Assembly: GCA_035495465.1 (NCBI GenBank)
Contig: DATJFX010000008.1
Span: 1 to 26,621 of the forward strand
Direction of reading: 5' to 3'
DNA: 26,621 bases
Source of the DNA: Candidatus Methylomirabilota bacterium
GTDB lineage: Bacteria > Patescibacteriota > Doudnabacteria > UBA920 > O2-02-FULL-48-8
The number at the start of each line of letters is the position of its first letter. Positions within the stretch are counted from its first letter, which is position 1. A program made the position numbers and the translations under genes. This document shows, piece by piece, positions 17,542 to 23,694 of the stretch. The notes below the pieces were generated by a model. That model saw nothing but the letters and a program-made list of their open reading frames with translations. It searched no databases and had not been told where the DNA came from.

Positions 17542-17631
17542 CCCGTCTCTTAACTCGAACCCTAACATTATGTAAACATTTGTTCAAGCTAACAGACGGG
17601 AGGAGGACAACTTCTTGCAAGTCATCCTCCC
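17542..17631 (-). other. Element C: two abutting hairpins between gene modules, carrying the shared leader motif
   Basis: GGGAGGATGAC/GTCCTCCTCCC, then CCCGTCT..TTAGCTTGAAC/GTTCGAGTTAA..AGACGGG. The G.U pairs favour the minus strand. Confidence 0.55.
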
Positions 17632-17638
17632 TATCTTT

Positions 17639-17887
17639 TCATTGTGCTCCTCCTTGTGAAGCATGCTCTGGTTTCTTGCCCGTGATCCGCAACGTGGGAC
17701 CTTTCGGTCCGATCATCATCACGCGCGCTTCTCCGCGCCGCAGAAACTGGATCGCGAGCGTGTCGGGATAGGGATATCCCAGATCTTCGACGATCCGATC
17801 CCGGATCTGCTCCTTCGACTCCGAACCGTTGATGATGGCCAGGACCCGATCTTGCACGATTGCGACGGAGAGATCTCTGTACTTCAT
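17639..17887 (-). CDS. Small hypothetical protein (82 aa)
   Basis: ATG overlaps the upstream stop, with GGAGG upstream and protein-like composition. Confidence 0.75.
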   Translation of the reverse strand: MKYRDLSVAIVQDRVLAIINGSESKEQIRDRIVEDLGYPYPDTLAIQFLRRGEARVMMIGPKGPTLRITGKKPEHASQGGAQ

Positions 17888-18075
17888 TTTTCCTCCAGGA
17901 TGGCGAGTTCCTGACGAAACTCCTCACACACATAGATTAGAATCCCGAGTTCGTCCGCCTGCTGTTCCACCGTGAGCAGATCGGAATGACCCAACTTCTC
18001 GATGGCCAGCTGCAACGCCGCGATCTTCCTCTTGAGCAATGCTTTCCTGTATTCTCGCCTTTTTCTTCCAAACAT
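17884..18075 (-). CDS. Small helical/coiled-coil hypothetical protein (63 aa)
   Basis: SD GGAGGTG 4 nt before the ATG; heptad-like Leu/Ile pattern. Confidence 0.75.
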   Translation of the reverse strand: MFGRKRREYRKALLKRKIAALQLAIEKLGHSDLLTVEQQADELGILIYVCEEFRQELAILEEK

Positions 18076-18110
18076 TCTTCACCTCCGCCTTTCGGCTGAA
18101 AAAAAGAACT

Positions 18111-18401
18111 TCACTTGGCGCAGTCAGGAATTGAGCCGCCGTCTTCGTAACGGCGTTCAATCTCACTGGCACAGATCCCAAATGGAATCAGAATTTCTTG
18201 GACCTTATCCAGATCCAGGAAACCTGAAGCCTTGGCTTGCTCGCGCAGAGCCTGAGTGGCATGGTCAGCGCGATCTGAATTGCGCTGTCTCGCCTGGCTA
18301 AACACGCGATCCCGCGATCCGCTACGCTGGACCAGCAGGATTAATATCATCAAGGTCCCCAATCCGAGGACCGCCAGGATCTTTCTTCTATTTTCACTCA
18401 T
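18111..18401 (-). CDS. Small bitopic membrane protein (96 aa)
   Basis: RRK followed by hydrophobic ILAVLGLGTLMILILLV; SD GGAGG. Confidence 0.75.
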   Translation of the reverse strand: MSENRRKILAVLGLGTLMILILLVQRSGSRDRVFSQARQRNSDRADHATQALREQAKASGFLDLDKVQEILIPFGICASEIERRYEDGGSIPDCAK

Positions 18402-18420
18402 CGATCCTCCGATCGAGTTT

Positions 18421-18529
18421 AAGGGAACATTCCCTTCCTAAATATTCTATCCTTAGAAAACTTAGGAAGGGAGGGAGTTTTAAGGGTTTACCAATCAAGG
18501 TGTCCAATAAAACTCTCCATCTTCTACTT
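18421..18529 (+). repeat. Structured repeat B1 (core 18465-18529)
   Basis: 65-nt core matches 19367-19431 at 64/65 positions; the 5' stem is conserved in structure. Confidence 0.9.
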
Positions 18530-18536
18530 ACTCCTC

Positions 18537-18803
18537 CTACTTCTTCCAATCCTTGCACCCACCCGGCACGACCGCCATAGAGGTTCCCTGATAGATCATG
18601 CTGGTGTAGATCAGGTTCCCCGAAAGCATGTCACAGGTGGCGACAATCGACCCAGTGCCCATGGTCGGAACCTCGTATCTATAGACCTTGGGCGCCGACT
18701 GCTCGACATACGCTTGTGTGTCGGTCGGCGCAGTACTGCAGGCCGACGTTAATCCAAGACATATTGCGATGCCACTAACCTTTTTCCAATTCCAACGGAA
18801 CAT
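18537..18803 (-). CDS. Small predicted lipoprotein (88 aa)
   Basis: Basic N-terminus, hydrophobic stretch, lipobox-like LTSA|C; SD GGAGGTG. Confidence 0.7.
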   Translation of the reverse strand: MFRWNWKKVSGIAICLGLTSACSTAPTDTQAYVEQSAPKVYRYEVPTMGTGSIVATCDMLSGNLIYTSMIYQGTSMAVVPGGCKDWKK

Positions 18804-18843
18804 CTCTCACCTCCGCGCTTCCGCGCTGGAAAAAGCAGAAAAT

Positions 18844-19029
18844 CTACTGAAAGAACCGCATGAACCAGCTGGAGATCGCTCCCCATTTGGCCCACACAAT
18901 CGCCGAGACGAACCCCAGCATTCCGAGGTTCATCATCACGCCCACAGCAAGGACGAATGACTGAGTGTCCTCACGCAGATACTTCTGCAACGGGCTCAAT
19001 CCCGTTTCGTTCGGATCAGGGATGTGCAT
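18844..19029 (-). CDS. Small single-TM protein (~61 aa)
   Basis: SD AAGGAG; hydrophobic FVLAVGVMMNLGMLGFVSAIVW. The start could be 19029 or 19032. Confidence 0.75.
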   Translation of the reverse strand: MHIPDPNETGLSPLQKYLREDTQSFVLAVGVMMNLGMLGFVSAIVWAKWGAISSWFMRFFQ

Positions 19030-21028: not shown

Positions 21029-21029
21029 C

Positions 21030-22691
21030 TTAGTAATCCATCCCGCCCATACCCGGCATCCCCCCGCCCATTCCTGCTGGTGGCGCCTTTGGTTCTGGTT
21101 TGTCTACTACTACTGCTTCTGTGGTTAGCATTTGTCCGGCCACAGAGGCGGCATTTTCTAAAGCCGTGCGTGTAACTTTTACTGGGTCAATAATTCCACC
21201 AGCAATTAAATCTTTAATGCCGGATTTCCAATTGTTCGGATCAAATCCGCCAAAATCAAAACCCATATTTGCATCTGTTAATTTCTGGACTTCAGATAAT
21301 ACTGAATTTTCAGACAACCCTGCGTTGATGGCAATTTGCTTCAGTGGCGCTTCAATAGCACGTCGGATAATCAGCACACCGGTTCGTTCACTACTGTGGA
21401 CTGAGTTGGCAAATTCATCAAGCTTTGGCGCAATTTTTGCCAGTGCGGATCCGCCACCCACCACGATACCTTCTTCCACTGCGGCTTTGGTCGCATTCAG
21501 CGCATCTTCAATCTTAAATTTCTTTTCTTTCATCTCAGTTTCTGTAGCGGCTCCAACTTTTATCACAGCTACGCCGCCTGCTAAACGAGCCAAGCGTTCC
21601 TGAAGTTTTTCTTTCTCGTAATCGGAAGTAGAAGCTTTTAATTCCATTCGGATCTGACCCACTCGGGCTTCAACTTTCGTCCTGTCACCTGCGCCATCTA
21701 CGATCGTCGAATTTTCTTTATTAGCAATGACTTTTCTGGCTCGGCCTAATTGTTCGATAGTGGTTGTATCTAACTTGAGTCCTAAATCATCTGAAATCAC
21801 TTCTCCGCCAGTTAGTACTGCGATATCCGCAAGCATTTCTTTTCTACGGTCGCCAAATCCTGGAGCTTTGATGGCTAGCACATTAAATGTGCCGCGCAGT
21901 TTATTTAGGATAAAAGTGGTCAGGGCTTCGCCTTCGATTTCATCTGCGATAATTACCAAATCTTTCTTGCCAGACTGAGCGATTTTTTCTAAGAGGGGCA
22001 ACAGTTCCTGGATAGCCGCCACTTTTTTATCTGTAATCAAAATATATGGATCTTCCCACACAGCTTCCATGCGTTCAGTGTTGGTCATCATGTAAGGCGA
22101 AACATACCCTTTATCAAATCGCATACCTTTTACCACTTCTTTTTCAAGTCCTATAGTCTGACCTTCTTCCACTGTGATCACGCCGTCTTTGCCGACATCA
22201 GCCATAGCTTCGGAAATAAGTTTTCCGACTTCCGGATCTAGAGAAGAGATCGTCCCGACCTGGGCAATTTCTTCCGAGGTCTTTACATCCTTTTTCACTT
22301 TCTTAAGCTCGTCTACAACAAAAGCTACCGCTTTATCTAGTCCCCGGCGGATGGATAATACATCAGCTTGGTTGCGAAATTCTTTCCAATGCATCAAAAT
22401 CGCCTGAGCTAAAACTGTGGCGGTGGTAGTGCCATCCCCTGCTACTTCATTGGTTTTTTCTGCCACTTCTTTGATCAGGGAGGCCCCGACATTTTGGAAT
22501 TTGTCTTCCAGTTCGATCTTTTTTGCAATTGTCACGCCGTCATTCGTAATAGTTGGCGCCCCGTAGCCTTCATCTAAAATTACATTGCGGCCCTTCGGAC
22601 CTAAAGTGACTTTTACGATATCTGCGAGCTTATCTACGCCCTCCATTATCTTTTCCCGGGCTGAATTGGAACTTAAAATCATTTTTGGCAT
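21030..22691 (-). CDS. groEL: Chaperonin GroEL
   Basis: [39 protein letters not shown], and a GGM-repeat tail. Confidence 0.99.
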
Positions 22692-22700
22692 ATTTTTTCC

Positions 22701-22973
22701 TTATTGTACTATCCCGAGGATGTCCTCGTCTTTTAAAAATTTATGTTCGACCCTATCGATTTCTACATCATCACCAGCGTATTTACCAAACATTACTTTC
22801 TGTCCGACTTTCAAATTTAGTTTTCCAATTTTTTCCCCTGTTCCAATCGCAACTACCTCTCCTAAAGCTTTCTCTTTATCTTCTGAAGTGGCGATGACAA
22901 TACCCGATTTGGTGGTGTTCTCTATTTTACTGGGCTTAACCAAGATGCGGTCGCCCACTGGTTTAATATCCAT
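22701..22973 (-). CDS. groES: Co-chaperonin GroES
   Basis: IKPVGDRILV, TKSGIVI, GEVVAIGTG, VGQKVMFGKYAG, EDILGIV. Confidence 0.98.
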   Translation of the reverse strand: MDIKPVGDRILVKPSKIENTTKSGIVIATSEDKEKALGEVVAIGTGEKIGKLNLKVGQKVMFGKYAGDDVEIDRVEHKFLKDEDILGIVQ

Positions 22974-23029
22974 ATATTCCTTTCGGTTAAAAAAATGTCC
23001 GTTCGGACATTTTGTTTTTGCTACAACTT

Positions 23030-23058
23030 ATTATAAAATTTTTTTCAGTCCCTGACAA
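23030..23058 (-). promoter_or_regulatory. groESL promoter
   Basis: TTGTCA-N17-TATAAT. Confidence 0.75.
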
Positions 23059-23074
23059 GGCCCCTAAAATGACG

Positions 23075-23101
23075 AAAACCGGCAACGCAAGCGCTGCCGG
23101 T
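23075..23101 (-). terminator. Terminator of the 119-aa orphan gene
   Basis: ACCGGCA..TGCCGGT stem followed by a T run on the minus strand. Confidence 0.65.
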
Positions 23102-23110
23102 TTGTGTACC

Positions 23111-23470
23111 CTACCACCGAGGTTCTCGGCGATAGGTTTGAGCGATCTGGTCGCTCATCTCCGCAACAATCGCCGTGGCGGCGATATCGCGAAGAATCGT
23201 CCGGCCTCCGTCATACTTACTGACGTAGGCCCCACAGTGCACCTCATAGAGCGAGGTACGACTGCGGTCCGACCGAACATTCGCCAAACCACTGGCGATG
23301 ATCAGTCCCAGCGTCTGTGGGCGCAACTTCCGCACACGTCGATGAACAACGTTTGCGGCTTGCTCCCAAAGATACTGAGCCGCAGGCTCGGTGAAGCCAT
23401 GCTCACGGATGAGATCCGCGGCAATGCGCTGCACGAGCTTCGGACGAGACGACGGGTTGGTGTTGGTCAT
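23111..23470 (-). CDS. Hypothetical protein (119 aa), GC-rich orphan
   Basis: SD AAGGAG, own promoter and terminator; no family recognised. Confidence 0.75.
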   Translation of the reverse strand: MTNTNPSSRPKLVQRIAADLIREHGFTEPAAQYLWEQAANVVHRRVRKLRPQTLGLIIASGLANVRSDRSRTSLYEVHCGAYVSKYDGGRTILRDIAATAIVAEMSDQIAQTYRREPRW

Positions 23471-23694
23471 GGGACACTCCTTCTCTGACGGCCAGCCGCA
23501 AGGATCAACCTATCAGCGACATGCTGATAAGCTCCTTACTGCTCGAACTGATGAACAATTGTGTTAACTTTAGACAAACAACATTTAATGGGTTAACTTC
23601 AACTACTCACAGTGGAGCGTTTTCAGCTAGTCTTTCAGGGTATTCCGTGACCTTCACGGTTTTTTAAACTTCCTCCATTTTTCACGAACTCCAA

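Follow-up and report, generated by a model that had tools for sequence, protein, structure and literature searches.

Results

Gene order and the R1 hairpin

The DNA analyzed here, hereafter the window, is a 26,621-nt contig (C8) of a 562-kb genome that is assembled in 70 contigs, has 42% G+C and is 82% complete; its relatives, found via a neighboring 326-aa gene, are named Candidatus Doudnabacteria (Patescibacteria/candidate phyla radiation, CPR). Read along the minus strand, the gene order is a 117-aa gene, the 326-aa gene, a 119-aa gene, groES, groEL, a PD-(D/E)XK (GxxExxY) gene, a stretch of 11 genes, HU and nusB. The 11-gene stretch is a variable island of ~3 kb between groEL and nusB (17017..20023, minus strand, ~53% G+C), and consists of small orphan genes led by Shine-Dalgarno (SD) sequences. 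The subject of this report is R1, a hairpin element of ~92 nt whose type-I copy (20057..20148, minus strand) ends 33 nt before the start of g1, a 64-aa orphan gene (19829..20023, minus strand). A preliminary description of this DNA had proposed a 23-nt leader motif at three minus-strand sites, namely motif A (20070-20092) before g1, motif B (23552-23574) before the 119-aa orphan gene (23111..23470, minus strand), and motif C (17561-17582) before g10, a 68-aa orphan gene (17265..17471, minus strand). The three sequences lie where it placed them, and their distances to the start codon, given as 45-90 nt, measured 47 nt for A, 82 nt for B, and 90 nt for C. A hairpin is predicted between motif and SD at all three sites, as had been described.

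BLAST of the island against 60 relatives returned matches only in non-coding parts and only within the same family, and the 95 nt around motif A (20149-20055) matched eight genomes, some of them twice. Motif A proved to be the 3' half of R1, the 5' half of which is conserved equally; the 23-mer is thus part of a ~92-nt element and not, as first proposed, a unit in itself. From base to tip, R1 comprises a basal stem P0 (UUUCCAC / GUGGAAG), a small internal loop, a 14-bp stem P1 (AUUCUGAAUAYUUA / UAAGYRUUCAGAGU), an internal loop that holds the conserved GUUGUAACAC, a 3-bp stem P2 (AAC / GUU), an AAA bulge, a 4-bp stem P3, and a variable terminal loop that tolerates large insertions. The 23-mer of site A spans the 3' strand of P3, the AAA bulge, the 3' strand of P2, the loop, and most of the 3' strand of P1. 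The unpaired nucleotides are the best-conserved part of type-I copies, and folding predicts an autonomous, very stable, interrupted helix of 20-30 bp.

The fold was supported by covariation. An RNAalifold consensus contained 22 pairs, 8 of them with compensatory changes. Across 24 R1 copies, 94% of cells were paired and 16 of the 22 pairs showed compensatory double changes, amounting to 62 double-changed cells versus 18.5 +/- 3.6 in shuffles, while sliding the 3' partners lowered pairing to 30-52%. A structure-blind MAFFT alignment of 13 type-I copies likewise gave 97% pairing, with 6 pairs double-changed. The stems hold 35 G.U cells versus 11 A.C cells, two G.U wobbles are conserved among type-I copies, and the sense strand outscores the antisense strand by ~40-55 bits in the strongest (type-I) copies and by a few bits in weak ones. 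Judged by this covariation, the excess of G.U over A.C, the conserved wobbles, and the sense-strand score advantage, it is the gene-sense strand that folds.

R1 had no counterpart in Rfam 15. The only window sequences to reach the gathering score in Rfam 15 were two tRNAs, and at E <= 10 the interval 16400-24000 gave only chance-level miRNA-type matches over its hairpins. The R1 family is therefore absent from Rfam 15, and with nothing beyond these matches even at E <= 10 we rejected a known housekeeping or ribozyme RNA. A search of the literature on structured RNAs of Doudnabacteria and CPR turned up nothing relevant. R1 is not followed by a U tract, the stem instead running into GUGGAAGC..., and no intrinsic terminator was called at 20057-20148 or 23541-23623.

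R1 copies fall into two subtypes, each with its own conserved core. Type I, which includes motif A, has GAAUA in stem P1; type II has GGG in stem P1 and the core GCAGGGAAAUCA ... UUGCCCUCAA. Three segments of type-II hairpins covary jointly (loci L021, L025, L039, and L018), namely UUGAUUU on the 5' side, AAAUCAA in the P3 loop and AAUCAAG on the 3' side, which in one genome read UUAGUUU / AACUAAA / AACUAAG. This triple covariation suggests alternative pairings or a pseudoknot.

Copies in the window and the status of motifs A, B, and C

The window was searched with R2, a covariance model built without window sequences from other genomes and metagenome contigs. Site A (20148-20057) scored 90.1 bits (E = 4e-21). 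A type-II-like copy in the island leader (20272..20368, minus strand; fold z = -7.1) scored 29.2 bits (E = 2.8e-5) with R2 and 39.7 bits with the R1 model, and its U-rich 5' end overlaps the tail of a preceding terminator-like hairpin. Hairpin B (23541..23623, minus strand), which holds motif B, was the fourth-best match in the window at 18.6 bits (E = 0.017) and reached only 3 bits with a family hidden Markov model (HMM) of the 3' half. It folds with a stem P1 of 13-14 bp, kept by inspection through compensatory changes relative to A, and with GUUAAC/GUUAAC as P2; a counterpart of the 5' strand of P3 could not be recognized by eye.

Relatedness of A and B was also evident from direct comparison. 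The match of 19/23 nt reported earlier was confirmed and extends to 28/35 nt (repeat family D7), and a gapped local alignment covers 84 nt (20130-20048 versus 23609-23529) with a score of 52, compared with 24.3 +/- 3.1 and a maximum of 36 in shuffles (z ~9). At up to 4 mismatches A and B were each other's sole matches in the whole 562-kb genome, and their consensus, at up to 3 mismatches, hit these two sites only in the window (shuffle expectation 0.00). On sequence comparison, motifs A and B are homologous, and the proposal that a shared leader ties the island to the isolated 119-aa gene stands in that both carry homologous leader elements.

The third proposed member did not hold. Local scores of motif C were 30 against A (p ~0.014 before correction for 11 upstream regions) and 23 against B (p ~0.1), it was missed by both the ungapped A/B consensus and the profile HMM, and R2 gave site C (17610-17537) 8.4 bits (E = 7.6). 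Motif C does lie, as described, in the apical part of a long stable hairpin (hairpin C, 17537..17610, minus strand, fold z = -6.1). In R1 the motif instead runs along the 3' side of the stem, so that the two architectures differ, and hairpin C had no BLAST match in relatives. By these comparisons, A is a member of R1, B is best read as a diverged type-I copy, and C is a non-member. Other module boundaries in this genome are marked by two 65-nt repeat elements and by hairpin C, which are hairpins of other families at positions equivalent to that of R1.

Whole-genome searches with covariance models and HMMs found three R1 copies in this genome, none of them outside this locus, which speaks against a genome-wide regulon. 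The idea that several units share the element fared better, as relatives too have it before more than one gene unit within a locus.

A single-gene unit upstream of groES

Hairpin B belongs to a single-gene unit (unit B) that lies upstream of groES in this genome only, and is composed of promoter P2 (23695..23723, minus strand), the hairpin, the 119-aa gene, and a terminator (23103-23076). Promoter P2 has the same hexamers as the island promoter P1 (20473..20501, minus strand, TTGACA-17-TATACT), the first transcribed bases are similar, and the two promoter regions align with a score of 32 (null 24.3 +/- 3.1). In every relative the 119-aa gene is lacking and the 326-aa gene directly adjoins groES. 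Unit B has the look of an island head, i.e., a promoter plus type-I hairpin, that was copied to a new place, has diverged, and carries one orphan gene. In genome G010 (L027:3023-3938) an unrelated 247-aa open reading frame (ORF) lies between the 326-aa gene and groES, and this interval may be a second, small hotspot of insertion.

Distribution and conservation of R1 in relatives

Of the family's 25 genomes, 21 carried R1, including all 17 of the high-quality ones, and the element spans 16 genera; among 121 genomes of the order's other families it occurred in 1. It also occurred on a handful of metagenome contigs, one of which has three type-I copies 1.25 kb apart, while exact-pattern scans of IMG/VR gave no R1 match. 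All copies of a genome lie in one locus, the variable island. Mapping of these loci with the window proteins placed the island between groEL and nusB with syntenic flanks, and in two loci rpmF stands at the nusB-proximal edge.

R1 is associated with the starts of genes. An SD-led ORF begins within 53 nt downstream (usually 10-53 nt) in 25 of 39 copies, and the orientation is always the same. In genome G006, R1 lies 17-52 nt from the downstream start and 121-252 nt from the upstream stop. The ORFs themselves differ almost wholly between genomes, even within a genus, although some are common to different genera at 30-45% identity. Of 68 ORFs between R1 copies that were scanned, just two gave a match, L32 at the edge of the island and a DUF3228 protein. 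Identity of hairpin DNA was mostly 88-89% (81% in one copy pair) versus 73-76% for groEL DNA, the ORFs between the compared hairpins shared nothing, and homology between genomes begins and ends at the hairpin borders.

Island genes, leader, and neighboring features

The genes behind motifs A, B, and C gave self-hits only in a search of 5.8 billion proteins, and nine island genes that were searched, together with the 119-aa gene, were without significant Pfam or PHROG match. These 10 empty PHROG searches and the empty IMG/VR scans led us to reject a phage origin. The small ORFs nevertheless look like coding sequence: G+C at the first, second, and third codon positions (GC1/GC2/GC3) is 0.56/0.42/0.68, and GC3 exceeds GC2 in 12 of 12. 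GC3 of the 12 small genes (17017-20023 and 23111-23470) is 0.57-0.78, with a mean of 0.68, versus ~0.40 in the three host genes checked (groEL, the 326-aa gene, and a 650-aa gene). The hairpins between island genes are AT-rich (33-46% G+C), and the islands of relatives have ~50% G+C regardless of the G+C of their flanks.

Promoter P1 and the leader behind it are kept in relatives. A terminator-like hairpin with a U tract (20367..20388, minus strand) stands ~80 nt past the inferred start at promoter P1, directly before the type-II hairpin, and looks like part of a conserved attenuator-like leader. This leader (20367-20466, minus strand), ~100 nt from promoter P1 to the first R1 hairpin, is conserved in relatives (loci L016, L021, L025, L026, and L041) and consists of a hairpin AUUCG-UUCAGGAC-CGAAU followed by the terminator-like hairpin with its U tract. 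The loop of the former, CAGGAC(C), is complementary to the 5' arm of the latter, (G)GUCCUG, a predicted arrangement like that of an attenuator or antiterminator that controls transcription into the island.

Several further features were observed around the island. A covarying three-way element of ~120 nt (families D1/D4) brackets it at 16811-16933 and 20158-20279; other partial copies occur in this genome (C63:5742-5836, C40:8491-8568, and C56:5378-5456) and in many relatives, and unlike R1 it is not confined to one locus. The nusB and HU genes (15879-16637) lie on the strand opposite to groEL here, whereas the relatives examined have both genes behind the island and on the strand of groEL, which points to an inversion of this segment in the genome or in the assembly. 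The PD-(D/E)XK (GxxExxY) gene (20571-20978), directly behind groEL, occurs in the same place in one relative, G006 (L021:376-789, 75% identity), and not in other relatives. The conserved 326-aa gene (23768-24748), which precedes groES, matches nothing in Pfam or NCBIfam and clusters in the ESM Atlas with Pol-beta-type nucleotidyltransferases (NTP_transf_2) by features and predicted fold (TM 0.83).

Discussion

A probable cis-acting RNA hairpin at module starts

The conservation and position of R1 lead us to favor, with somewhat better than even confidence, its interpretation as a cis-acting RNA hairpin that marks the starts of orphan-gene modules. R1 occupies the coding strand, some tens of nucleotides ahead of the SD of a module's first gene, and would act in cis on the RNA to signal where a module begins. 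As to how, we tentatively prefer a site of RNase III-type double-stranded-RNA processing or stabilization, a mechanism that we hold to be possible and no better. It is favored by the autonomous, very stable interrupted helix, by the unrelated long hairpins at equivalent positions in this genome, by the presence of an RNase III gene in 22 of 24 relatives, and by the lack of coupling to SD accessibility. Similar elements are familiar from other organisms. ERIC/IRU, Correia/NEMIS, and RUP repeats and the RNase III sites of phage T7 are imperfect palindromes of ~100 nt that are co-transcribed and form long hairpins with internal loops, and they are cleaved by RNase III or alter mRNA stability or downstream translation. 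R1 has the same overall form, a palindrome of ~100 nt predicted to be co-transcribed as a long hairpin; however, those repeats are dispersed in both orientations or are phage-borne, whereas R1 keeps to one locus and one orientation. Since the R1 hairpins are near-identical while the genes between them are replaced, we think that they probably serve as homology patches for module exchange as well.

Several observations weigh against this interpretation. In about one third of R1 copies the nearest SD-led ORF downstream begins only after 90-250 nt or could not be found, and an RNase III gene was not found in the present 82%-complete assembly. The basal stem is nearly invariant on both strands, in the manner of terminal inverted repeats, and recognition at the DNA level would also account for this; the stems also contain the 11 A.C mismatch cells. 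In addition, blocking the basal stem in folding left the mean SD accessibility at 0.55 versus 0.57 (20 copies).

More specific roles were considered and rejected. The basal 3' strand GUGGAAG can pair with a downstream GCUUCC in some copies, but partition-function folding of those 20 copies with the basal 5' strand blocked or free gave no consistent change in SD accessibility, which does not fit an SD-sequestering switch as a general mechanism. A promoter inside the hairpin is unlikely, as the spacing from TTGTTT to TACTTA is 13 nt and no -35/-10 pair is conserved. The stretch that resembles an rRNA-type boxA (UGCUCU...) is the 3' strand of P3 and covaries in relatives (CCGU, CCCU), and the AAA bulge is, on inspection, without the tandem G.A pairs of a K-turn.

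Possible exchange of modules at the DNA level

An alternative, which we regard as unlikely, is that the hairpins are primarily points of exchange at the DNA level, i.e., recombination sites or portable homology, and that the RNA fold is a by-product. Much in the arrangement is consistent with this. There is one array per genome, in which unrelated orphan ORFs alternate with conserved imperfect palindromes of ~100 nt, and homology between genomes stops at the hairpin borders. The GC3 of the ORFs appears foreign while the hairpins are AT-rich like the host, the element ends resemble terminal inverted repeats, and unit B resembles a transposed promoter-hairpin-ORFan module. The promoter-early stem-loops (PeSLs) of T4-type phages act in this way (PMC2839356, PMC4122927). 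However, the window encodes no recombinase, and the neighboring conserved 326-aa gene has a predicted Pol-beta nucleotidyltransferase fold rather than that of a recombinase. The consensus ends read differently from attC core sites, the coding strand folds better and has conserved G.U wobbles, the element has neither a sigma-70 promoter at a fixed position nor a U tract after it, and in G006 its position follows the downstream start and not the upstream stop.

PeSLs are short, conserved regulatory cassettes with a stem-loop that precede ORFans in the hyperplastic regions of T4-type phages, and modules are shuffled by recombination at them (Arbiol et al. 2010, PMC2839356; Comeau et al. 2014, PMC4122927). 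R1 resembles them in its placement as a stem-loop just ahead of the SD and start codon of ORFans within a hypervariable region, and in being better conserved than the genes it flanks, such that recombination could shuffle modules; in this genome unit B, with its promoter P2, hairpin, and ORFan, has the appearance of a relocated cassette. Shuffling of modules via R1 would follow from this conservation pattern only. The differences are nonetheless substantial. A PeSL combines a sigma-70 promoter with a short G/C-rich terminator stem-loop (PMC2839356, PMC4122927), whereas among 35 R1 copies no promoter scoring at least 9/12 stands at a conserved distance, promoters P1 and P2 precede the hairpins by ~70-320 nt, and R1, lacking a U tract, is a multi-helix element of ~92 nt with conserved internal loops and compensatory changes. 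Moreover, R1 resides in a bacterial chromosome and not in phage, and the exact-pattern scans of IMG/VR gave no match to it.

The array is also reminiscent of integrons and of clusters of attC sites lacking integrases (CALINs). In both, a genome has a single array of small genes that are unrelated, for the most part without known function, and in one orientation; between them lie imperfect palindromes of ~60-140 nt with conserved ends and a variable center, and a strong promoter stands at the head. In integrons, attC core sites have the form RYYYAAC / GTTRRRY, and it is the bottom (non-coding) strand that folds. The ends of R1 (UUUCCAC-N-AUUCUG ... CAGARUU-GUGGAAG) are unlike these core sites, and in R1 the coding strand folds better, as seen in the ratio of G.U to A.C. 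No window ORF contains a recombinase domain, the sole PF00589 gene of the genome being on contig C61. R1 is, furthermore, tied to the downstream start and kept across genera rather than travelling with each cassette. With no integrase, ends that are not attC core sites and the wrong strand folding, the R1 array is not an integron.

Less likely roles: a dedicated ligand, mobile repeats, and a DNA operator

Within an RNA-level role, the next option after processing is that a dedicated protein or ligand would bind at the conserved internal loop and AAA bulge; the nearly invariant basal stem together with the conserved loop and bulge leaves room for such a factor. In its full form, that of a regulon in which one dedicated protein or small ligand binds these nucleotides (GUUGUAACAC / AAAGUUYAC) and co-regulates translation of the genes behind the copies, we find this idea improbable. 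The strong conservation of unpaired nucleotides in type I, the two subtypes with their own cores, the fixed position upstream of the SD, and the occurrence of these nucleotides in both A and B would suit it. On the other hand, the hairpin and SD show no consistent coupling of accessibility, just two or three units carry R1 here while other modules use unrelated hairpins at the same position, and the terminal loop varies freely and accepts large insertions. R1 has in common with orphan cis-regulatory RNA motifs, such as riboswitch candidates, its 5'-untranslated position, covarying helices, and conserved unpaired nucleotides; it differs in occurring as several copies in one operon-like array before unrelated genes, with no SD-coupled expression platform and no Rfam 15 match.

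It is very improbable that R1 is a selfish element, akin to a miniature inverted-repeat transposable element, that spread within the island and has no cellular function. Its ~100-bp size, its inverted-repeat ends, the presence of several copies in a genome, and the large insertions that it sometimes contains recall such elements, but the copies occupy one locus in one orientation relative to the genes and none lies elsewhere in the genome. They are kept across 16 genera at an identity above that of groEL where compared, and their inner stems are held by compensatory changes that a transposase would not need.

The preliminary description had left open whether the motif was a DNA operator, built on GTT direct repeats 11-12 nt apart, or an RNA site; the RNA level fits better, given that the motif is the 3' strand of a covarying sense-strand hairpin. 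There is next to no chance of a duplex DNA operator or of a fortuitous AT-rich similarity, because, even though A and B both lie downstream of twin promoters, 9 of 13 related type-I copies have CATT, TATT or TTTT in place of the middle GTT of the 23-mer, the motif is ~120 to 400 nt downstream of the promoters within sequence predicted to be transcribed, and chance is excluded for A/B by the genome search, shuffles, and consensus scan.

Implications for Doudnabacteria

These analyses replace a 23-nt motif with a defined structured element and sort out which of the three sites belong together. The genomes of CPR bacteria are tiny, with hardly any DNA to spare, yet this family maintains orphan genes in an array at a fixed site behind groEL, and the hairpins of the array are RNA-like and conserved above the adjoining essential genes. 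A 92-nt element with two subtypes and a known position before the SD offers a handle on both the expression of the island and the replacement of its genes. There is, in our estimation, a small chance that R1 and the other hairpin families of the island are working parts of an undescribed CPR gene-module system. In it, R1 would belong to a novel class of processing RNAs, acting by self-cleavage or guided by a factor, and divide the transcript of the array into modules, or else it would be the place at which a novel cassette-capture mechanism docks. If so, such a system could allow minimal genomes to trial foreign, GC3-rich orphan genes at one fixed site.

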